This document shows positions 4,488 through 59,719 of a stretch of DNA of 64,000 bases, piece by piece. Below the pieces are notes generated by a model. It was given only the letters and a program-made list of their open reading frames with translations. It had not been told where the DNA came from and did no database searches. The stretch lies in assembly GCF_006345805.1 (NCBI RefSeq), contig NC_043018.1, positions 9,982,001 to 10,046,000 of the forward strand, read 5' to 3'. The translations under genes and the position numbers were made by a program. Position 1 is the stretch's first letter. Each line of letters starts with the position of its first letter. Origin of the DNA: Octopus sinensis (taxonomy: Eukaryota).

Positions 4488-4880
4488 CTTTTACTTGCTT
4501 CAGTCATTTGACTGCAGCCATGTGGAGCCACACCACCTTCAGTCGAATAAACAGACCCTAGGACTTATTCTTTGTAGGCCTAGTACTTATTCTATTGGTT
4601 TCTTTTAGTTGAACCGCTAAGTGACGGGGACGTAAACACACCAACATTGGTTGTCAAGCGATGATGGAGAGACAAACACAAACACAAACAATAAACACAC
4701 ACACACACACCTATACGATGGGCTTGTTTCATTTTCTGACTACCGAATCCACTCACAAGGCTCTGGTCGGCCTGAGGCTATAGTAGAATGTACTTCCTCA
4801 AGGTGCCATGCAGTGGGACTGAACCTGGAACCATGTGGTTGGGAAGCAAGCTTCTCATCACACAGCCACGCCTGCACCTA
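4487..4880 (-). mobile_element. Octopus tRNA-derived CORE-type SINE (family A)
   Basis: Reverse complement of the family-A layout seen at 21766/54090: tRNA-like head, gcaccttgggcaagtgtcttc core, internal microsatellite, gaaacaagtaaaag tail. Confidence 0.85.
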
Positions 4881-5362
4881 TAAAAAGAAATTATACATAC
4901 ATACGTATGTCTGTACATACACACACACACATGCATACACACACATGCACACACATGCATACACACATGTATATATATCGTTGCTGTCATGTATCGTATG
5001 TTTTCACAGGATGTTGATGACACAACAGTAAAAGTCTTCCCGGTCAGGCGTGAGTTCATTCTGACTCACTCCCTCTCTCGCTTAGTGTTTCCTTGGCAGA
5101 GATATTGGGCTGGTTCAGCATTGCTTTCTCCAGCTGGACAGCTGTTGACCCATAAGGAGCACATCTAAACTTTGGTAAGTCTTCTTTCCGACTGGGCAAC
5201 CAGATATGCTCCTCACCAAAGTTACAACCTACTGAAGTTGGTCAGCCAGTTTAGTTGCTGACCAGTTCACTACAGAACAGATAGTACTGGTTTATAGGAT
5301 ACAAGAAGCAGGTCTCCCCAGGCTGTGATGAGAGCCCTGATCTAACTTGGATTCATATGCAT

Positions 5363-11359: not shown

Positions 11360-11378
11360 TATATTATTATATAGAAGG

Positions 11379-11429
11379 AGCTTCTACAGGACTAGAACTG
11401 TTTCATTCAAGAGAAATCTTCAGGAAGCT
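11379..11429 (-). ncRNA. Type I hammerhead ribozyme (left arm)
   Basis: Exact reverse complement of 11576-11626. Confidence 0.75.
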
Positions 11430-11575
11430 AGTTAACAGAATTGTATTGGCATTTATACATTTAGGCAGGTTTAAAGGGGTGTTGGTGGGGGACTTTTTGG
11501 GTCCCAAAATGTCCCCCACCAACACCCCTTTAAACCTGCCTAAATGTATAAATGCCAATACAATTCTTGTTAACT

Positions 11576-11626
11576 AGCTTCCTGAAGATTTCTCTTGAAT
11601 GAAACAGTTCTAGTCCTGTAGAAGCT
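11576..11626 (+). ncRNA. Type I hammerhead ribozyme (right arm)
   Basis: agcttc-CTGAAGA-t-ttc-tctt-gaa-t-GAAA-cag-ttctagtc-ctg-TA-gaagct: 6-bp stem I, conserved core, 4-bp stem III, predicted cleavage after GUA (A11620). Confidence 0.8.
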
Positions 11627-12191
11627 CCTTCTATATAATAAATTAATTTTACTCTGCTATGTATTGAGTACCTTATTTACTGTGGTTAACCCCGAATCAA
11701 CCCGGGACCTACATATATATATACATATATATGTATGTATATATATATATGTATAGATATATATGTGTAGATATGTGTATATATATATATATGTTAGTGT
11801 GTACATATACACACACACCTGTACGAATACAAGTATATATATAGGGCTATGTGAGTGTGTATGTGTGGGTGTTATTGTTTGTGTGTATGTATGTGCATGT
11901 GTGTGTGATGGTTTGTAAGTGCGTTTTAACGTACGGCATTTGTTGGCATGTACCATATGTTCAAGTTAATACAGCAGCAGCAGCAGTGGAAATGCACACG
12001 AAATAAAAGATCACAACAGAAACACATCCATGCACATGAACATACTCAGCAACATATAAACCAACACATACACATCAACACACACACACACATATATATA
12101 TTTACATATCTTTATATGTATATTGAAATTAATTAGCATTAATTGACATTAATTAAACCTTATATATATATATACACACACGCACACACTC

Positions 12192-15362: not shown

Positions 15363-16599
15363 ATGAGATAATTCATCATAAATGGAAGTTTTAAACAAGA
15401 GACCGAGCAAACTCTTGAATAATCCCAGATTATTGTGACATTGTGATGGTAGAGCTGTTATATTACACCTGTCATTTTTCACAGTCTGATCAGGTGTAAA
15501 GTAATTTATTTTCATCTATTTTAAGATTTACCTGTAAACCTGGTTGAGAATATTACATATTGACTTCGTCAATTAATTAGAAATAGAATTTGATGCCAGA
15601 TCAATATTAGACCGAATAATATTAATCTGAATATCTCTACATGAGCTAGCAACAAGTGGATCAGATTAAACACTTAATACTAATCAATATAGTAAATACT
15701 AAAGTGTGTTCAGGTGAGATTCAGGTACGCAAATATTTTATTACTGAAACAGGTGAGTAAATGGCTGTGGATGTCTCGTGAAGTGAAATATTTTCCGTGT
15801 GGTAAGAAGTTTGCTTCCCAAACTCATGGTTATGGGTTCAAACCAAATGCACAACACATTGGGCAAGTGTCTTCCATTATGGTCTTAGGCTGACCACTGC
15901 CTTGTGAGTGGATTTGGCAAGCAGAAACTGAAGGAAGCCCATCATATATAGATATGTGTGTGTGTGTGTGTGTGTGTATGTATATATGAGTGTGTATGTG
16001 TGTGTACATATGTTTCTCTTTTATCTTTTACTTGTTTCAGTCATTTGACTGTAGCCATGCTGGAGCAGCACCTTGAAGGGCTTTAGCCAGACAAATCAAC
16101 CCCAGGACTTACTTGATATTTTTATTTTAAGCATCGTACTTATTTTGTCTGACTCTTTTGCTGAACTGCTAAGTTACGGGGACTTATTGACACTGGTTGT
16201 CAAGCAGTGGTAGGGGACAAACAAAGACACAAAGACACACACACACACACAAAAGAATGAAACCATCATGGAATCTCAGTTGCCAAATAGACTTTGGTGC
16301 TGATGGTAAAATTCCTCCAAGAAGAAGATTTTGAAATGACTTTTGGATGTTGCTGTTGGTGTTGTTATTTAGCTCCCAAGTCAGTTCTGATTGAGCAAAT
16401 CTATGACCAGAGACGCTCCAGTCATGACTATCCCACCTTTTATTACGACATAATGTACATCTAGGACCAAATTATCCAGTGCCTCATTCCTTATTTAAGT
16501 TAGTGGGCTGTGAGTTGTGGGAGATTTGGTTGCTATTTCGAGTAGAGTGGGGTAGAAACTTTCTAGCTGGCATACAATTTTAACGATGCTTTATAACTA

Positions 16600-17934: not shown

Positions 17935-19632
17935 TGATTGATGCTGGTGCTGGTCCCATGTCAAAAGCACTGGTGATGGTGCCACATAAAATGCACCCAG
18001 TACCCTTTGTGGAGTGGTTGGCATTAGGAAAGTAATGACAAAGCACCGAGATATCTGGCCCTTTGCTGTTCTCAAAAAGACCTGTCCACCACGGCCGGAT
18101 TGATGCTGGTGCTGGTCATGTCAAAAGCACTGGTGATGGTGCCACATAAAATGCAACCCAGTACCCTTTGTGGAGTGGTTGGCATTAGGAAGTAAGACAA
18201 AGCACCGAGATATCTGGCCCTTTGCTGTTCTCAAAAAGACCTGTCCACCACGGCCGATTGATGCTGGTGCTGGTCCCATGTCAAAAGCACTGGTGATGGT
18301 GCCACATAAAATGCACCCAGTACCCTTTGTGGAGTGGTTGGCATTAGGAAAGTACTGACAAAGCACCGAGATATCTGGCCCTTTGCTGTTCTCAAAAAGA
18401 CCTGTCCACCACGGCCGGATTGATGCTGGTGCTGGTCCCATGTCAAAAGCACTGGTGATGGTGCCACATAAAATGCACCAGTACCCTTTTGGAGTGGTTG
18501 GCATTAGGAAGTAATGACAAAGCACCGAGATATCTGGCCCTTTGCTGTTCTCAAAAAGACCTGTCCACCACGGCCGGATTGATGCTGGTGCTGGTCCCAT
18601 GTCAAAAGCACTGTGATGGTGCCACAAAAATGCACCCAGTACCCTTTGTGAGTGGTTGGCATTAGGAAAGTAATGACAAAGCACCGAGATATCTGGCCCT
18701 TGTGCTGTTCTCAAAAAGACCTGTCCACCACGGCCGGATTGATGCTGGTGCTGGTCCCATGTCAAAAGCACTGGTGATGGTGCCACATAAAATGCACCCA
18801 GTACCCTTTGGGAGTGTGGTCATTAGGAAAGTAATGACAAAGCACCGAGATATCTGGCCTTTGCTGTTCTCAAAAAGACCTGTCCACACGCCGGATTGAT
18901 GCTGGTGCTGGTCCCATGTCAAAAGCACTGGTGATGGAGCCACATAAAATGCACCCAGTACCCTTTGTGGAGTGGTTGGCATTAGGAAAGTAATGACAAA
19001 GCACCGAGATATCTGGCCCTTTGCTGTTCTCAAAAAGACCTGTCCACCACGGCCGGATTGATGCTGGTGCTGGTCCCATGTCAAAAGCACTGGTGATGGT
19101 GCCACATAAAATGCACCCAGTACCCTTTGTGGAGTGGTTGGCATTAGGAAAGTAATGACAAAGCACCGAGATATCTGGCCCTTTGCTGTTCTCAAAAAGA
19201 CCTGTCCACCACGGCCGGATTGATGCTGGTGCTGGTCCCATGTCAAAAGCACTGGTGATGGTGCCACATAAAATGCACCCAGTACCCTTTGTGGAGTGGT
19301 TGGCATTAGGAAAGTAATGACAAAGCACCGAGATATCTGGCCCTTTGCTGTTCTCAAAAAGACCTGTCCACCACGGCCGGATTGATGCTGGTGCTGGTCC
19401 CATGTCAAAAGCACTGGTGATGGTGCCACATAAAATGCACCCAGTACCCTTTGTGGAGTGGTTGGCATTAGGAATTAATGACAAAGCACCGAGATATCTG
19501 GCCCTTTGCTGTTCTCAAAAAGACCTGTCCACCACGGCCGGATTGATGCTGGTGCTGGTCCCATGTCAAAAGCACTGGTGATGGTGCCACATAAAACGCA
19601 TCCAGTAGACTTTATGGAGTGGTTGGTGTTAG
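17935..19632 (+). repeat. ~162-bp satellite, 11 unit starts, built from an RTE LINE ORF end plus 3'UTR
   Basis: gatgctggtgctggtc at ~17940, 18102, 18260, 18422, 18581, 18741, 18898, 19060, 19222, 19384, 19545. Confidence 0.95.
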
Positions 19633-19765
19633 GAAGGACATCCAGCCATAGAACCCAAGCCAGAACAGAGAATGGAACCTGGTGTGACCTCTGGCCTTAT
19701 CAGCTTTGGTCAAACTGTCCAACATATGCCAGCATGGAAAACGGATATTAAATGATGATGATGAA
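19545..19765 (+). mobile_element. RTE LINE 3'UTR and (TGA)n tail terminating the satellite
   Basis: ttaggaaggacatccagccatagaa...ccagcatggaaaacggatattaaatgatgatgatg. Confidence 0.8.
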
Positions 19766-21765: not shown

Positions 21766-22173
21766 AGGCGGTGGAGTGGCTGCGTGGTAAGTAGCTTGTT
21801 TACCAACCACATGGTTCCGGGTTCAGTTCCACTGCGTGGCACCTTGGGCAAGTGTCTTCTACTATAGCCTCGGGCCGACCAAAGGCTTGTGAGTGGATTT
21901 GGTAGACGGAAACTGAAAGAAGCCCGTCGTATATATGTATATATATGTGTATGTGTGTGTGTGTTTGTGTGTCTGTGTTTGTCCCCTTAGCATTGCTTGA
22001 CAACCGATGCTGGTGTGTTTATGTCCCCGTTACTTAGCGGTTCGGCAAAAGAGACCGATAGAATAAGTACTGGGCTTACAAAGAATAAGTCCCGGGATCG
22101 AGTTGCTCGATTAAAGGCAGTGCTCCAGCATGGCCGCAGTCAAATGACTGAAACAAGTAAAAGAGTAAAGAGT
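21766..22173 (+). mobile_element. Full-length family A CORE-type SINE
   Basis: aggcggtggagtggctgcgtggtaag...ggttcagttcc...gcaccttgggcaagtgtcttc...gaaacaagtaaaagagtaaagagta. Confidence 0.92.
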
Positions 22174-38229: not shown

Positions 38230-39040
38230 TGAGTGGTCCTTTTCTGGAATATGGATTAAGATGTCTGTGTGTGCAACTACAAGACTACAGTCCCAGACTT
38301 GAGAAAAACACATCCGTTGAAGGGAACCACCTGGTCTTTACTGAGTATCAATAATTATTGCGGGAGGGAAGTATTTTGTCCTCAAGTGAAAGGCCAGTTG
38401 TTTTGGATGTGGTCCTATGTTAATATGTGCTTTTGCTAGGAGAGGTTTTCATTAATAGTGAGGTCCAGTATTTATTAAGCAACCATTAAAACTCCAATTG
38501 AGGGCTGCTCATTTATTAATGAGAGGTGTTGTGTGATAATATATTTCTCAATAGGAGTAGCATTTGTGTTTTCTAGCTGTTGAAAGAGATAAGATTGGCA
38601 CCTCTCCATTGGAGGTCTCTATTCATGGAGTCAGTGATGTTTAGTGGTGTGATGTCCAGGTTGGAATGGGGTGATGCATGGTTGGAGAATGTTCTTGAGG
38701 AATGGAGAGTAGGAGTCATTTGTGTAAGTATGGGTGTTGCAGGATGTGGTGGTAAGTAAGTTATGGACGGAAAGAAAGGAATGAGGGACAATGGTGAACC
38801 ATGGGTCTATGTCAGAGTTCACAGAATGAGGAACACAAACAGCTTCATTATCACACATTACTAATAAGAAGTTAGCAATCCAAGAGATGAGAGATGGGTG
38901 GAACCCTTAGGCGTGTGGAAGTTTTGAGAAGAAATTTTCATGCTAAACATGGTTGAAAGTATTGTTTATGTCAAGGACAACTAAGTTGCTTTCATCAAAT
39001 TTCTTCAAGGTGAGAACTCAATTGTAAGTAATGACTGGCG
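38230..39040 (-). pseudogene. Decayed LINE reverse transcriptase (CR1/L2/Crack group)
   Basis: Minus translation with frameshifts: ESNLVVLDINNTFNHV*HENFFSKLP, GFHPSLISWIANFL, NTHTYTNDS (YADD region), SMNRDLQWRGANLISFNS. Confidence 0.75.
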
Positions 39041-39044
39041 ATTG

Positions 39045-39072
<28 letters not shown>

Positions 39073-39075
<3 letters not shown>

Positions 39076-39280
39076 GGTCCCGGGTTGAGTCGGGGTTAAC
39101 CACAGTAAATAAGGTACTCAATACATAGCAGAGTAAATTAATTTATTTTATAGAAGGAGCTTCTACAGGACTAGAACTGTTTCATTCAAATGAAATCATC
39201 AGGAAGCTTGCTGGCAAGCTTCCTGATGATTTCATTTGAATGAAACAGTTCTAGTCCTGTAGAAGCTCCTTCTATAAAAT
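39073..39280. mobile_element. Second fold-back PLE-type mini-element in (TA)n
   Basis: Reverse orientation of the 11365 family; perfect palindrome 39145-39280 with a 2-nt loop (39212-39213). Confidence 0.85.
39217..39267 (+). ncRNA. Type I hammerhead ribozyme (mirror copy on the minus strand at 39158-39208)
   Basis: agcttc-CTGATGA-t-ttc-attt-gaa-t-GAAA-cag-ttctagtc-ctg-TA-gaagct; canonical CUGAUGA core, GUA cleavage after A39261. Confidence 0.82.
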
Positions 39281-39849
39281 TTAAAAAAAAATATATATAT
39301 ATATATGGGGCATAATAAGTAAGATTTATTGCATTTTTGATTTCGAAAAAAAAAAAAAATTTTCAACAAATATTCACAACCTTACAAAAACTATATCAGC
39401 CAAGCAAATGACTGTCTCTAAATGCAATAAAAACATTACAACATAATCTGAGCACCATTTCAGAGAATTATTTCCATTCTCTCTGAGAATATAAAAGACA
39501 AATTTAGATGGGCAAAATGAGTAAAACAAGATAAGGTAAACTTACCATTTCCATTCTCCAGAATTACATTCAGAAATAGACTCGTACACATCAATAGCCA
39601 TCCATAAACATTAGAAAGAAGAGAAATGCTACAAAAATGAAAAATATTAAATGAAAGAGGATCATGGGAAAATGACATGAAATTTATGAAACTTGACTAA
39701 ATCTAAAAATTCAACAAAAAAAGTATTCTCTACAGCTTATAATCTGCTGGAGTGGTTCTCTTCCTGATATATTTTTATGCAGTTAAAGAGAAGAAGTTAT
39801 TGAAATTAGTCATTATTCAATTTGTTTTCATTTTGAAGTGATGTCATGG

Positions 39850-48598: not shown

Positions 48599-48618
48599 TA
48601 TATATATATATATATAAC

Positions 48619-48994
48619 AGGTGCAGGAGTGGTTGTGTGTTAAGTAGCTTGCTAACCAACCACATGGCTCCAGATTCAGTCCCACTACATGGCACCTTGG
48701 GCAAGTGTCTTCTACTATAGCTTCAGGCTGACCAAAGCCATTTGAGTTGATTTGGTAGATGGAAACTGAAAGAAGTCTGTCATATATATATATGTGTGTG
48801 TGTCTGCCCCCCCCCCCCCATCATTTGACCACTGATGCTGGTGTGATTATGTCTCCATAATTTAACTGTTCAGCAAAAGAAACCGATAGATTAAGTATTG
48901 GGCTTACAAAGAATAAGTCCTGGGGTTAATTTGTTTGACTAAAGGTGGTGCTCCAGCATGGCCACAGTGAAATGACTGAAACAAATAAAAGAAT
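48619..48994 (+). mobile_element. Family A SINE
   Basis: Same layout as 21766. Confidence 0.85.
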
Positions 48995-51580: not shown

Positions 51581-52003
51581 CTTTACTCTTTACTCTTTTA
51601 CTCTTTTACTTGTTTCAGTCACTTGACTGCGGCCATGCTGGAGCACCGCCTTTAATCGAGCAACACAACCCCAGGACTTATTCTTTTGTAAGCCCAGTAC
51701 TTATTCTATCGGTCTCTTTTGCCGAACCGCTAAGTAACGGGGACGTAAACACACCAGCATCGGTTGTCAAGCAATACTAGGGGGACAAACACAGACACAC
51801 AAACATACATGCACACACACATATATATATACATATATACGATGGGCTTCTTTCAGTTTCCGTCTACCAAATCCACTCACAAGGCATTGGTCGGCCCGGG
51901 GCTATAGTAGAAGACACTTGCCCAAGGTGTCACGCAGTGGGACTGAACCCAGAACCATGTGGCTGGTTAGCAAGCTACTTACCACACAGCCACTCCTGCA
52001 CCT
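51581..52003 (-). mobile_element. Full-length family A SINE
   Basis: Near-identical reverse complement of 54090-54503. Confidence 0.92.
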
Positions 52004-52729: not shown

Positions 52730-54590
52730 ATGGGTGTGACAAAACTTATGTTGATTCCTCACATTTCAGTGAGAGGAAGCACTGATGACAGGAAAGCCAA
52801 TGTTTTTTATTTATGGAGTGGCCAGTCAGTTTGCTAAAGTATATCTGTGCTCATGAGGGCATTGGCAAAAAACCTCACTTTTAAAGTTTAGTTCTTTAAT
52901 GTGATTCTTCTTCTCAGCAAAGCAGTGTCTGCATGTTCTCCAGCTGTTAAAGTAAGGTTTGCACTTTTCTGTTACCCTTCACTTGATGCCATAATGTGCA
53001 ATATTTCCTTTATCTTCTAAACATATCTTGTTAGTATTGTGGCGTTTCACCTCTCATGGATACTAAATGAGAATTTGTGGTTGTTAAATAGGGTCCTGAA
53101 TGACCTTCTGTTGCACCCATATATGGATGCAATAGAATGTCTGTACATTCATTGCTCCAATGAAATTCTTTCACACCACTTCCTCCTCCTCCTCCTCATA
53201 CAAAATGCTTTCTGTATTGGCTGTTTAGTGGGCATGTAGCATCATCTTTGAATGAGCAGCATGCCTCTATTTACAAATATTTTCTTTATGAGGGTGTGCA
53301 TTTAAAAAAGACCCTCAAAGTATGTCTATCAAAGATTTTCTTGTATTTATGTGTTTGTGGGGAATGCTTGTTGACTGAACTAAGGAAGATCCTACCTACA
53401 CAAGTTTTTACATTAAGGTAAAATGGGGGTCTGAATCATATAATCTTATAGTAGTATTTTCTCTTGGTGGTGTTAGGGTTGGACATATAACTAATCCTAT
53501 ACTTGATACATTAGGTGACCAAGGCCTTGTAGCATCAAAGATCCACTTAACCAAAGATAGGTTGGAGATTCTTTTGCTAATCCCCTTAACCAGGTTCCTA
53601 AAAACAATGGCTGGATGACAGGAAAATGTACTGATATATTTCAGCCTCTTATTTGGATTTTGAAAAGGTTTATAGGTACCAGTGTCTCTATTTTATATCA
53701 CATCTAGGAAATCAACCCCTTTCAAGTTGATCTCTATTGTGACTTTGAGCCCAAGAAAATTAAGAGCATGGATTAGGTCCTTCTGATGCTTATCAAATGT
53801 GTGATCATTTGCCCCTCTCAATAGTTGAAGAGATTTTCTTACTAAGCATACCTAGAATAAAAAGGCCTAAGAGGTCACATACCTCAGCACTATCGAAAGC
53901 TCCCATTACAACGTTGAAATAACCTCCCAGGTCAGTCTGCTTTACTCAGATCAAGCCACTGTCAAAGAGAAGAGTTCTCCTGGCATGAATGATGATGCTT
54001 ATGCTCTCAATGTTAATTTCAGTGCAGGACCTAGGTGAAGATAAGTACCCAATGTAACATATAGAGAGTTGCTGGGTAAACATCCACAATAGGTGCAGGA
54101 GTGGCTGTGTGGTAAGTAGCTTGTTTACTAACCACATGGTTCCGGGTTCAGTCCCACTGCATGGCACCTTGGGCAAGTGTCTTCTACTATAGCCTCGAGC
54201 CAACCAAAGCCTTGTGAGTGGATTTGGTAGATGGAAACTGAAAGAAGCCCATCGTATATATGTATATATATATATGCGTGTGTGTTTGTGTGTCTGTGTT
54301 TGTCCCCCTAGCATTGCTTGACAACCGATGCTGGTGTGTTTATGTCCCCGTTACTTAGCGGTTCGGCAAAAAAGACCGATAGAATAAGTACTGGGCTTAC
54401 AAAGAATAAGTCCTGGGGTCGAGTTGCTCGATTAAAGGCGATGCTCCAGCATGGCCACAGTCAAATGACTGAAACAAGTAAAAGAGTAAAAGAGTAAAGA
54501 GTAATGTCAAATTGGGTGAAACTTACACTGATCTGGCCATTGTTGGTTTTAATCTATGAACTGACCTCATTGATGTTGCACCTATATTAC
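52730..54590 (-). mobile_element. Decayed Penelope-like element (Naiad-type RT + GIY-YIG), split by a SINE at 54090-54503
   Basis: Minus motifs SFTQFDI|VDVYPA, IIIHARRTLLFDSGLI*VK, YFNVVMGAFDSAEVCDLLGLFIL, VDFLDV, YKPF, YMGATEG, CRHCFAEKK, LNFKSEVFCQCPHEHRYTLAN* (stop at 52826-52828); 3' end abuts (TA)n. Confidence 0.85.
54090..54503 (+). mobile_element. Full-length family A SINE
   Basis: Complete head, core and (agagtaaa)n tail. Confidence 0.93.
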
Positions 54591-55185: not shown

Positions 55186-55595
55186 ACAGGAGTGGCTGTG
55201 TGGTAATTAGCTTGTTTACCAACCACATGGTTCCGGGTTCAGTCCCACTGCGTGGCACCTTCGGCAAGTGTCTTCTACTATAGCCTCAGGCCGACCAAAG
55301 CCTTGTGAGTAGATCTGGTAGACGGAAACTGAAAGAAGCCCATCGTATATATGTATATGTATATATGTGTGTGTGCGTGTATGTTTGTGTGTCTGTGTTT
55401 GTCCCCCTAGCATTGCTTGACAACCGATGCTGGTGTGTTTATGTCCCCATTACTTAGCGGTTCGGCAAAAGAGACCGATAGAATAAGTACTGAGCTTACA
55501 AAAGAATAAGTCCCGGGGTCGAGTTGCTCGATTAAAAGTGGTGCTCCAGCATGGCCGCAGTCAAGTGACTGAAACAAGTAAAAGAGAGTAAAAAG
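55186..55595 (+). mobile_element. Full-length family A SINE
   Basis: As above. Confidence 0.92.
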
Positions 55596-57710: not shown

Positions 57711-57989
57711 CACTAGACTAGAAATCTAGAAATCAATAAAATGATTAACAGCCAATGTATTGAACAGACCAATTGGAGTTATTAATAACCCAGGATTAAT
57801 CAATAACAGAGGTTATCCAATACTACGGATGTTGATTTTTGCAGTGGATGTATCGAATGGAATAGCTGAGTGTATGTTAAATATAGATCGACAGCAGGTT
57901 AGTTAAAAGAGTAGAGATAAATAATGGATGGATAGAACAGTTAGGTGTGTGTTAAATATAGATTGGTTAGTGGTTAGTCAATAGAGGGA

Positions 57990-59332
57990 AATAGAGAGGG
58001 GGTATACAACAGTGGTTATGGAGATAGAGAGGGGAGGCATACAACAGTTGTATGGAAACAGAGGGGAGGCTTACAACAGTTGTATGTATACCCCATCTCT
58101 ATCTCCATACAACAGTTGTATGGAGATAGAGAGGGGGGTACACAACAGTTGTATGGAGATAGAGAGGGGGTATACAACAGTTGTATGGAGATAGAGAAGG
58201 GGCATACAATAGTTGTATGGAGATAGAGAGGGGGGCATACAACAGTTGTATGGAGATAGAGAGGGAGTATACAACAGTTGTATGGAGATAGAGAGGGGGT
58301 ATACAACAGTTGTATGGAGATAGAGAGGGGGTATACAACAGTTGTATGGAGATAGAGAGGGGGCATACAACAGTTGTATGGAGATAGAGAGGGGGTATAC
58401 AACAGTTGTATGGAGATAGAGAGGGGGTATACAACAGTTGTATGGAGATAGAGAGGGGGCATACAACAGTTGTATGGAGATAGAGAGGGGGTATACAACA
58501 GTTGTATGGAGATAGAGAGGGGGTATACAACAGTTGTATGGAGATAGAGAGGGGGTATACAACAGTTATATGGAGATAGAGAGGGGGTATACAACAGTTG
58601 TATGGAGATAGAGAGGGGGCATACAACAGTTGTATGGAGATAGAGAGGGGGTATACAACAGTTGTATGGAGATAGAGAGGGGGTATACAACAGTTGTATG
58701 GAGATAGAGAGGGGGTATACAACAGTTATATGGAGATAGAGAGGGGGTATACAACAGTTGTATGGAGATAGAGAGGGGTTATACAACAGTTGTATGGAGA
58801 TAGAGAGGGGGTATACAACAGTTGTATGGAGATAGAGAGGGGGCATACAACAGTTGTATGGAGATAGAGAGGGGGCATACAACAGTTGTATGGAGATAGA
58901 GAGGGGGTATACAACAGTTGTATGGAGATAGAGAGGGGGCATACAACAGTTGTATGGAGATAGAGATGAGGCATACAATAGTTGTATGGAGATAGAGAGG
59001 GGGCATACAACAGTTGTATGGAGATAGAGAGGGAGTATACAACAGTTGTATGGAGATAGAGAGGAGGTATACAATAGTTGTATGGAGATAGAGAGGGGGT
59101 ATACAACAGTTGTATGGAAATAGAGAGGGGGTATACAATAGTTGTATGGAGACAGAGGGGAAGCATACTACAGTTGTATGGAGACAGAGATGAGGCATAC
59201 AACAGTTGTATGGAGATAGAGAGGGGGTATACAACAGTTGTTTGGAGATAGAAAGGGGGTATACAACAGCTGTTTGGAGATAGGGAGGGGGTATACAGTG
59301 GTTATGGAGATAGAGATGAGGCATACAACAGT
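57990..59332 (+). repeat. 32-bp minisatellite, ~40 copies
   Basis: Unit gagatagagaggggg(t/c)atacaacagttgtatg; period 32 (e.g. 58381, 58413). Confidence 0.97.
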
Positions 59333-59719
59333 TTTAAGGAATATTGTTGAAGCTCTGTTAAATATAAATTACAATGGATTTCTTTCAGTTTCTATTAATC
59401 AAATCCATTCCAAGGAGGAAATAGAGAAGAGCATACAGTGGGTGGATGGGCGTGTAGTAAGGAGTTTGCTTTGGAACCACACGGTTCTCAGTTCAGTCCC
59501 ACTGCATGGCACCTATAGCAAGAGTTTTTCTGCTATAACACTGGGGCCGACCCAAAGCCTTGTGAATGGATTTGGTAGACAAATTTTGAAAATTAACTGG
59601 AACGCAGGCAGTGTACTTCAACAGAAATTTGTTATCAAAAGGGTTAATGAAGAGGAGATACAGAGCAGATGTATGAAATATTTGAATGTATGTTAAATAA
59701 AGATTAACTATTGGTTAGT

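Follow-up and report, generated by a model that had tools for sequence, protein, structure and literature searches.

The question raised by positions 39073-39280 of a 64-kb window of the Octopus sinensis genome (contig NC_043018.1, positions 9,982,001 to 10,046,000; the window is this whole stretch, and its first letter is position 1) is why a short segment should carry the same hammerhead ribozyme (HHR) motif twice, on opposite strands and in the two arms of a perfect palindrome, and what kind of genetic element such an arrangement represents. Our analysis indicates that this segment, referred to as locus 2, is real and that it is an ordinary member of a known element type whose known behaviour explains the feature. 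We consider it probable that locus 2 is the 5'-truncated head-to-head fold-back of the 3' end of a Penelope-like retroelement (PLE) located in (TA)n, with one HHR motif per arm and with a palindrome that was likely made in a single insertion by a reverse transcriptase (RT) turning back on its own complementary DNA (cDNA).

The structure of locus 2 is defined by an inverted repeat whose arms of 67 nucleotides (nt), at 39145-39211 and 39214-39280, match with 0 mismatches and enclose a spacer of 2 nt (TG, 39212-39213), which on the minus strand reads CA before GCAAGC and still belongs to the canonical element. The left arm, with the element sense on the minus strand, is continued by a 72-nt terminal tail (39073-39144, minus strand) that is confined to this side, ends with ...CAACCCGGGACCTAC and is adjoined at the element 3' terminus by the (AT)14 microsatellite of the target site at 39045-39072. 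The right arm, with the element sense on the plus strand, ends in an A/T-rich patch ...CTATAAAAT 72 nt short of the element 3' end and is followed at 39281-39306 by an A-rich run (T3A9) and then by (TA)n at about 39291-39306. The whole insertion thus comprises 208 nt, and on the fold side both arms end at a nearly identical base, 3 nt 5' of helix I of the HHR. In the left arm, the HHR motif is found at 39158-39208, where a match to our descriptor predicts cleavage between 39164 (A17) and 39163 (G1.1) on the minus strand. The type I motif of the right arm, also a descriptor match, is located at 39217-39267 on the plus strand, with the helix I 3' strand at 39217-39222, CUGAUGA at 39223-39229, helix II and loop II between two U residues at 39230-39241, GAA at 39242-39244, the helix III hairpin at 39245-39260, A17 at 39261 and the helix I 5' strand at 39262-39267.

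A sister locus of another subfamily, referred to as locus 1, is found at 11363-11712 on the plus strand of the same window. Its arms (11363-11501 and 11503-11641) are 139 nt long and surround a 1-nt spacer, the long arm extends to the 3' end at 11712, and (TA)n is found on both sides; the 1 mismatch and the 1 single-base indel between the arms are both outside the HHR motifs, which were detected by the descriptor at 11379-11429 (minus) and 11576-11626 (plus). The first-pass annotation of this DNA had portrayed locus 2 as a second palindromic copy next to (TA)n in opposite orientation, folded at a different point with a 2-nt loop, and had described HHRs that differ between the loci only at N7 and in loop II while being identical in the two arms of each locus. 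This description is borne out by the perfect arms of locus 2 with (TA)n on both sides, by the reversed orientation (long arm on the minus strand vs the plus strand at locus 1), by a fold point of locus 1 that is placed about 70 nt farther upstream and by the comparison of the motifs, where within each locus the 51 nt of the HHR are identical between the arms and where the two loci differ at 3 of 51 positions, namely N7 (A/U) and the first two bases of loop II (UC/AU).

Both loci belong to a repeat family that is very young and present in thousands of copies. The 203-nt tail of locus 1 returned 778 first-look candidates, and all 40 of the 40 genomic matches that were scored differ from it by at most one base, the tail type of locus 2 is similarly abundant (853 candidates) and a pattern of 35 places describing the HHR core has 2,355 + 2,340 = 4,695 exact matches in the genome compared to 0 in the control, with many copies at an identity of at least 99.5%. 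The full unit of about 5.4 kb consists of a 5' untranslated region (UTR), an open reading frame (ORF) of about 713 amino acids (aa), a low-complexity 3' UTR of about 2.6-3 kb and a conserved tail of about 330 nt. Non-palindromic copies extend upstream into an (ATTTTTT)n-like stretch and then into more than 1.5 kb of low-complexity sequence that is common to the loci and that in some cases adjoins the ORF. The distance of the tail from the ORF stop codon, about 2.6-3 kb in 3' direction, was obtained from chains of overlapping loci, and a BLAST search placed the tail 2.5-4.5 kb downstream and on the ORF strand in 13 of 16 diverged ORF copies, 11 of the 16 also containing a descriptor-positive HHR. 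A reading of the tail as short interspersed nuclear element (SINE), as tRNA-derived or as miniature inverted-repeat transposable element (MITE) was dropped after this link to the ORF was found. The end ...GGGACCTAC is adjoined by (AT)n in 30 of 30 loci and in 24 of 24 displayed loci. In one copy (L042), merely ATAT separates the end of the tail from the element's own 5' UTR, and in another (L090) the end ...GGGACCTAC passes directly into the 5' UTR, with the ATG following 57 nt later, an organization that corresponds to a tandem arrangement of pseudo-long terminal repeats (pseudo-LTRs). The family thus displays the insertion structure of PLEs, with its pseudo-LTR or tandem layout, the inverted 5'-truncated copy, the one-sided tail and the (TA)n target. 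As a separate observation, the low-complexity 3' UTR of one PLE copy harbours an unrelated non-LTR retrotransposon (L031:5139-7479, minus strand) with ORFs of 255 and 432 aa that contain endonuclease-like and RT-like sequence.

The identity of the element is reflected in its protein. An open frame of 652 aa in L068 and one of 293 aa from the ATG in L090, the latter covering the N-terminus, combine to about 713 aa, and 542 relatives with a typical length of about 700 aa were found at E<=0.001 among 8,000 protein candidates scored. In an AlphaFold model based on an alignment of 25 sequences (mean predicted local distance difference test score, pLDDT, 82.4), residues from about 48 to 418 best match the catalytic cores of telomerases in a VIA-align search (9swo_A with a Z of 17.6, a root-mean-square deviation, rmsd, of 4.2 and 327 aligned residues; 6zdp_A with a Z of 17.4, an rmsd of 2.7 and 260 aligned residues), followed by DRT2, DGR, R2 and LINE-1 RTs. 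By its predicted fold, the ORF is thus an RT related to telomerase RT. The whole-model fold search is dominated by this domain; residues 524-616 are modelled as a succession of strand-strand-helix-helix-strand-helix. Neighbours of the ORF in the language-model Atlas carry HTH_animal, DUF8422 and GIY-YIG, and among those found with residues 505-651, 31% of members have GIY-YIG as name or contain PF01541. A match of the ORF to VtrA_C in Pfam is below threshold and was taken as chance.

The translation contains DKT, LYRDDG, CNCPDKTTC (CxCX5C), VYT...YIG...R...H, CDLC (CxxC) and CMH (CxH), with RIRWR near the N-terminus and one Cys only between VYT and YIG. This set resembles the features of the Hydra clade of PLEs, which include DKT for DKG, a CxCX5C linker, CxxC and CxH, an RWK motif, the absence of CCHH, canonical HHRs and insertion into (TA)n (Craig et al. 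2021, PMC8557442). We found the protein part of this motif set in the ORF, including the lack of a CCHH in the putative nuclease core and the RWK-type motif, and, as judged by eye, the sequence aligns block for block with the supplementary alignment of the same study (PMC8557442). With high confidence, the element is a PLE, and motifs in protein and ribozyme suggest that it would be of Hydra type, on a comparison with the published clade references that was made by eye.

The HHR motif was defined with a type I descriptor (CUGANGA, helix II, GAAA, helix III, UH and helix I, with a minimum of 3 base pairs (bp) in helices II and III and of 4 bp in helix I), whose matches in the 64-kb window are exactly the four arms of loci 1 and 2, compared to 0 in 200 dinucleotide-preserving shuffles. 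The type I core is complete in these arms, with C3, U4, G5, A6, N7, G8, A9, G12, A13, A14, the A15.1-U16.1 pair and H17. The motif of 51 nt combines an open helix I of 6 bp (AGCUUC/GAAGCU), the core CUGA(U/A)GA, a helix II of 3 bp with a loop of 4 nt and a U.U flank, followed by GAA, and a helix III of 4 bp (ACAG/CUGU) with the 8-nt loop UUCUAGUC, followed by A17. The predicted cleavage site is located 91 nt from the insertion end ...GGGACCTAC.

In six aligned lineages, the HHR varies only at N7, at positions 1 and 2 of loop II and at position 2 of loop III, and an examination for compensatory changes found the helices invariant, with no helix variation to score, while 6 of the 10 bases directly upstream of helix I are variable; the chance that all four variable sites would fall within the 13 unpaired non-core positions of the 51 is about 0.003 (computed). 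The proposal of the first-pass annotation that changes are restricted to tolerated ribozyme positions thus holds at the level of lineages but not for individual dead copies, which have changes in the core, such as at U4 and G8, as decay predicts. Its companion proposal, a pattern that fits selection for ribozyme function, is similarly upheld in part. Such selection is consistent with the location of the lineage changes, but in a comparison of the two subfamilies, where 48 of 51 positions are conserved in the HHR and 118 of 149 in the upstream part, the downstream 86 nt are conserved at 83 positions and thus as strongly as the motif itself, which makes ribozyme-specific selection inseparable from selection on the whole 3' end. 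As judged from the alignments, it is the entire 3' end of the element that is constrained. Haplotype counts obtained with the 35-place pattern were not used as proof of a variation restricted to loops, since the pattern had fixed the remaining positions.

For locus 2 itself, RNA from both arms would be expected to fold into a 67-bp hairpin (-126.5 kcal/mol) that locks the two motifs, and both HHRs are thus predicted to be inert. A candidate ribozyme function, the processing of tandem transcripts, would belong to master copies. Models of microRNAs (miRNAs), small RNAs (sRNAs) and other hairpins (MIR4240, mir-629 and others), which ranked at the top at the E-value threshold, were rejected, as all score far below their gathering scores and mirror the perfect hairpin.

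The origin of the palindrome becomes apparent from its variation across the genome, for which we have fetched 60 loci with flanks of 1.5 kb. An inverted partner is present within 1.5 kb in 33 of these loci, 21 of which are directly adjacent head-to-head pairs with spacers of 0-7 nt in 15 cases and of 14-34 nt in 3 (two of the latter, L046 and L049, being one structure on two unplaced contigs). These 21 pairs fold at no fewer than 11 points, and 7 of them fold exactly between AAG and CTT of the 6-nt palindrome AAGCTT in the 3' strand of helix I. A palindrome with this centre and zero spacer is found at 497 loci genome-wide (for example L048, L052, L053, L055, L056, L059 and L060) compared to 0 in the control, and among the first 50 of these loci listed, N7 is T/T in 24 and A/A in 26, with 0 mixed. 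The first 100 matches listed for the HHR core contain 56 that are arranged in 28 head-to-head pairs within 6 kb, with 3 direct and 0 tail-to-tail pairs. In 27 of these 28 pairs, both arms share the same one of seven haplotypes, compared to about 27% expected by chance (computed), and the start-to-start distance is 38-78 nt in 13 pairs, a group that includes the 55 nt of locus 2, and 236-5,962 nt in the others.

Equally pronounced is the constancy of the outer end. In 31 inverted arms that are not cut by the end of a fetched locus, this end lies 48-76 nt short of the element 3' end, in 30 of 31 within 61-76 nt and in 11 of 31 at exactly 68 nt, and none of the arms reaches the 3' terminus. The boundary at -68 (counted from the 3' end) falls within an A/T-rich patch in which the palindrome AAATTAATTT is embedded. 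This 10-nt sequence, found 62-72 nt from the element 3' end (at about 39135-39144 in the minus-strand copy of locus 2), coincides with the arm boundary and contains ATT on each strand, a motif that another PLE nuclease is reported to prefer for cleavage. An apparently lower identity of short compared to long arms was rejected as a sign of low-fidelity synthesis, as the query had selected the long arms.

Together, these features make copy-back a reasonably likely mechanism for the formation of the palindrome. Target-primed reverse transcription would begin at a nick in (TA)n from the 3' end of the element, and the cDNA would end at positions that vary, with the self-complementary AGCT/AAGCTT of helix I as a frequent one. 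For the second arm, the enzyme would then stay with the same template lineage, in the simplest case its own cDNA, and this arm would be resolved at an A/T-rich site, either by internal initiation, by nuclease resolution or by (TA)n microhomology. Since the candidate start or resolution sites at 0 and -68 are both located 3' of the cleavage site at -91, the template of an insertion would have to be uncleaved at that HHR, in agreement with the in vitro system.

A pattern search for (TA)5 within 25 nt upstream of CCTTCTATA has identified 28 distinct loci, 5 of which fold between AG and CT in the 5' strand of helix I and 2-3 at the native GAAG-CUC-CUUC hairpin. The 5' ends of 19 simple truncations fall into a span of 25 nt, with 5 at G1.1 and at most 2 at any other position. 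As G1.1 is preceded by UA, microhomology to (TA)n may account for this excess, and the other site preceded by UA has 2; the excess may thus provide a weak hint of self-cleaved templates that is confounded by TA microhomology. These observations have led us to consider a double duty of helix I, where the self-complementary AGCU contained in AGCUUC and GAAGCU would serve as the site at which the RT turns back or two cDNAs anneal, and where the truncations at G1.1 would be the footprint of self-cleavage in vivo. We regard this combined proposal as rather improbable. If it were true, the ribozyme sequence would itself programme the head-to-head architecture of this PLE family, and the footprint at G1.1 would constitute a cleavage signal that is absent from a published search of RNA reads for another PLE.

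Several results weigh against the interpretation of locus 2 as a fold-back of an HHR-bearing PLE. With respect to the ribozyme, a search of the window with Rfam at gathering score yielded 0 matches, hammerhead families included, Hammerhead_3 reaches 16.8 bits at the palindrome vs a gathering score of 48.5, and none of the Rfam hammerhead families matches locus 1 or a canonical copy at E<=10. Helix II contains only 3 pairs, and the catalytic fold of the 51-mer is not the one of minimum energy (-6.7 and -7.3 vs -8.8 and -8.5 kcal/mol), as a competing fold that pairs G12-A14 is more stable by 1.2-2.1 kcal/mol. With respect to the protein, a local Pfam search with the ORF detected neither an RT nor a GIY-YIG domain; in 25 homologues RVT_1 and GIY-YIG were each found in 1, nothing was detected in 4 of 5 homologues scanned singly, and 0 matches at E<=1 were obtained when PDB sequences were searched with a profile of the ORF alignment. 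With respect to the assembly, no contig of four public runs, which were compared over 38900-39450, covers the palindrome together with both unique flanks. Finally, with respect to the mechanism, 3 of the 21 adjacent pairs (L036, L040 and L044) are offset or have differently diverged arms, and in two pairs the arms disagree at a base that is diagnostic of lineage, which is N7 in L052 and loop III position 2 in C1:2912259/2912302. Simple copy-back also leaves unexplained the composite insertions L078 and L090, which display the complete layout known for PLEs, in which an inverted truncated copy with full tail is combined with a partial sense unit and a full unit ending at -69, and in which the arm ending at -69 is longer than the arm with the full tail. 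The mismatches between the short and the long arm of L052 and within C1:2912259-2912336 could reflect a later mutation, an error of the RT or different templates.

The main rival of copy-back is a priming from two ends, where each strand of a cut (TA)n tract would act as primer for the copying of RNA, with one start at the 3'-most site and a second one about 68 nt upstream, and where the resulting cDNAs would be joined head-to-head, in a possible variant through an RT that switches at the RNA 5' end to the other cDNA as template. Such a process is compatible with the activity of a vertebrate PLE protein that in vitro cuts AT-rich DNA on both strands and extends both, and whose reverse transcription starts internally, at two sites that mark the limits of the tail (Frangieh et al. 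2024, PMC11167929). A second start site would fit the constant outer end between -61 and -76, and tails and composite units with a longer arm ending at -69 are better accommodated than by simple copy-back. The offset junctions and mixed arms described above also speak in its favour. In contrast, independently truncated cDNAs should not meet at one nucleotide, as would be required by the short spacers (up to 7 nt) in 15 of the 21 adjacent pairs, and they should not share their haplotype in 27 of 28 pairs or yield 0 of 50 pairs mixed at N7 when A and T types are about equally common. In light of the symmetric junctions and the matching haplotypes, priming from two ends needs both cDNAs to be derived from the same RNA molecule and to extend to its 5' end. 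We thus view it as unlikely.

It is also conceivable that the palindrome was made later and at the level of DNA, if a truncated insertion underwent template switching during replication or repair of a hairpin-capped break at (TA)n. Tracts of (TA)n are prone to cruciform formation and found beside every copy of the family. Still, such rearrangements do not account for inverted arms that terminate near -68 in 30 of 31 cases whatever the flank, or for the exclusive occurrence of head-to-head pairs (28 vs 0 tail-to-tail among the first 100 matches listed), and the same layout is common to PLEs of other phyla that do not reside in (TA)n, as described previously (Arkhipova et al. 2013, PMC3846280). 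Compared to copy-back, we thus consider a DNA-level origin very unlikely.

Even less credible is an inherited hairpin, a palindrome that would have been fixed in a short non-autonomous master resembling a MITE or SINE and amplified as a unit. The 497 loci with a single zero-spacer centre in AAGCTT and with an N7 that agrees between the arms (among the first 50 listed) would be expected in this case, but the class is found in at least two subfamilies and several masters would thus be needed. Moreover, the exact fold junctions of locus 2 (a 26-mer) and of locus 1 (a 29-mer) each occur only once in the 2.72-Gb genome, the pairs share neither a fold point nor a distance (at least 11 points in 21 adjacent pairs; 38-5,962 nt from start to start in 28 pairs), and the unequal ends are incompatible with terminal inverted repeats (TIRs). 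For similar reasons, we have rejected a MITE or foldback DNA transposon, whose ends should correspond, since those of locus 2 (GTAGGTC... vs ...CTATAAAAT) are 72 nt apart in register, the folds are variable and the junctions unique. With one arm longer by about 68-72 nt, there is no fixed MITE TIR, as had been anticipated by the first-pass annotation, whose proposals of palindromes that were made upon insertion instead of being inherited, and of a feature that is no single assembly artefact, are likewise supported by the unique junctions, the multitude of fold points, the matched haplotypes and a layout that recurs on many chromosomes. The check that it had suggested, a collection of copies with their fold-back points mapped, has revealed no one fixed palindrome centre, though a hot spot at AAGCTT.

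An artefact, in which the inverted arm would stem from the mis-assembly of a high-copy repeat, is hardly plausible, since, despite the missing contig across palindrome and flanks and the known trouble that tandem and inverted PLE structures cause in assemblies (PMC8557442), 33 of 60 loci, which differ in their unique flanks and fold points, share this architecture, contigs of four runs from three studies join (TA)n at window 39137-39144, which equals the boundary at -64 to -71, and the unique flanks at 38900-39034 and 39382-39450 were recovered in independent runs with no differences. Depth figures of these contigs, being sums over repeat copies, were not used as copy numbers.

The remainder of the window provides the surroundings of the two loci. 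It contains no credible protein-coding ORF, as all 31 ORFs of at least 150 aa are low-complexity or tandem-repeat frames, and it is extremely rich in microsatellites, with (TA)n, (CA)n, (GATA)n, (CATA)n and trinucleotide tracts. A tandem array at 17936-19635 consists of 10.6 copies of a 162-nt unit with 96% matches, and related repeated frames are also found in L031, and a minisatellite at 57987-59340 consists of 42 copies of a 32-nt unit with 90% matches. A dispersed repeat of about 200-240 nt that occurs in both orientations (51601-51839, 55348-55586, 21766-21978, 54091-54303, 4695-4882, 48618-48806 and 15774-15999) constitutes another element family, one pair of which is 95% complementary at a distance of 3.5 kb.

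For the annotation of this region, it follows from the fold-back reading that locus 2 should be described as a dead-on-arrival fragment of a retroelement, and neither as a functional ribozyme pair nor as a MITE or a gene for a miRNA-like hairpin. At the same time, the family, with its at least 4,695 intact HHR cores, offers a large natural data set on the inverted structures of PLEs. Its exact fold points, the hot spot of 497 loci on a 6-nt palindrome, the matching haplotypes of the arms and the sharp boundary near -68 constrain the models of self-priming and of two-ended priming, which have so far been based on few copies and one in vitro system.

When compared to known systems, locus 2 is a minimal instance of a published PLE architecture for which an account by self-priming has already been published, whereas the size of the tail, the hot spot in helix I and the scale of the family are new. 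A literature search on fold-back hot spots in PLEs and on cephalopod hammerheads, which covered journals outside of subscription, returned nothing beyond the papers cited here. Twin priming in L1 reportedly generates an inverted 5' part during target-primed reverse transcription via the second target strand. It differs from our case, as it joins two different, non-overlapping parts of the RNA to yield an inversion, whereas here the same sequence is found twice in a palindrome, and we have rejected such an L1-type inversion since both arms of locus 2 represent the same 67 nt instead of adjoining parts of a template.

A closer relationship exists to the non-LTR retrozymes and minimal PLE hammerheads of animals, where a type I HHR is likewise tied to the terminal repeats of PLEs (Cervera & De la Pena 2014, PMC4209133; Li et al. 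2026 preprint) and where pairs of PLE hammerheads close together on opposite strands had already been noted (PMC4209133). Unlike retrozymes, locus 2 is not a head-to-tail tandem array that would be able to give circular RNA, and a classification as non-LTR retrozyme with tandem HHR repeats was discarded in view of its head-to-head arms and of the 3 direct vs 28 inverted pairs among the first 100 matches listed. The 4-bp helix III also distinguishes the motif from the 'min-HHR' of most metazoan PLEs.

Among PLEs, the strongest resemblance is to the Hydra clade, as presented by Craig et al. 2021 (PMC8557442), whose study reports this clade in aquatic invertebrates including molluscs. Common features, compared by eye, include the protein motifs DKT, CxCX5C, CxxC, CxH and the RWK-like motif, a canonical type I HHR with a helix II that is flanked by U on either side and a helix III of 4 bp, placed about 100 nt from the end of the element, and the insertion into (TA)n. 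The HHR table of that study describes a frame in which CUGANGA-U, a short helix II and U-GAA are combined with a helix III of 4 bp and a helix I of 4-7 bp, at a distance of about 100 nt from the element end, within which the published members contain other helix sequences (by eye), one coral family has the same ACAG/CUGU helix III and the sole cephalopod family listed differs in its HHR sequence from ours. The family investigated here departs from published PLEs in its long 3' UTR, in its tail of about 68 nt, in a helix II of 3 bp and in a loop III of 8 nt. With reference to the Hydra clade, the unit of about 5.4 kb exceeds the described size of <3 kb as a consequence of its low-complexity 3' UTR of about 2.6-3 kb, the one-sided tail is longer than the 30-40 bp reported, helix II is shorter than the 4 or more bp found in most members and loop III is larger than the described 1-3 nt.

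The insertion itself follows the canonical pattern of PLEs, which are highly 5'-truncated, often preceded at their 5' end by an inverted 5'-truncated copy and extended on a single side by a tail of 30-40 bp, and which target (TA)n and contain HHRs in their pseudo-LTRs (Craig et al. 2021, PMC8557442). Their inverted-junction palindromes, mostly head-to-head, were best interpreted as result of self-priming (Arkhipova et al. 2013, PMC3846280), and in a vertebrate PLE the HHR was found to be assisted by the protein and dispensable for insertion in vitro (PMC11167929). As in these systems (PMC3846280 and PMC11167929), the family contains a head-to-head inverted copy, a junction palindrome, an extension at one end and an AT-rich target, with an HHR upstream of both putative sites of RT start or resolution. 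Unlike in the canonical case, locus 2 spans no more than 208 nt, with both arms cut at nearly the same base, target-site duplications are unreadable in the (TA)n surroundings and the fold points of the family cluster on the self-complementary sequence of helix I.

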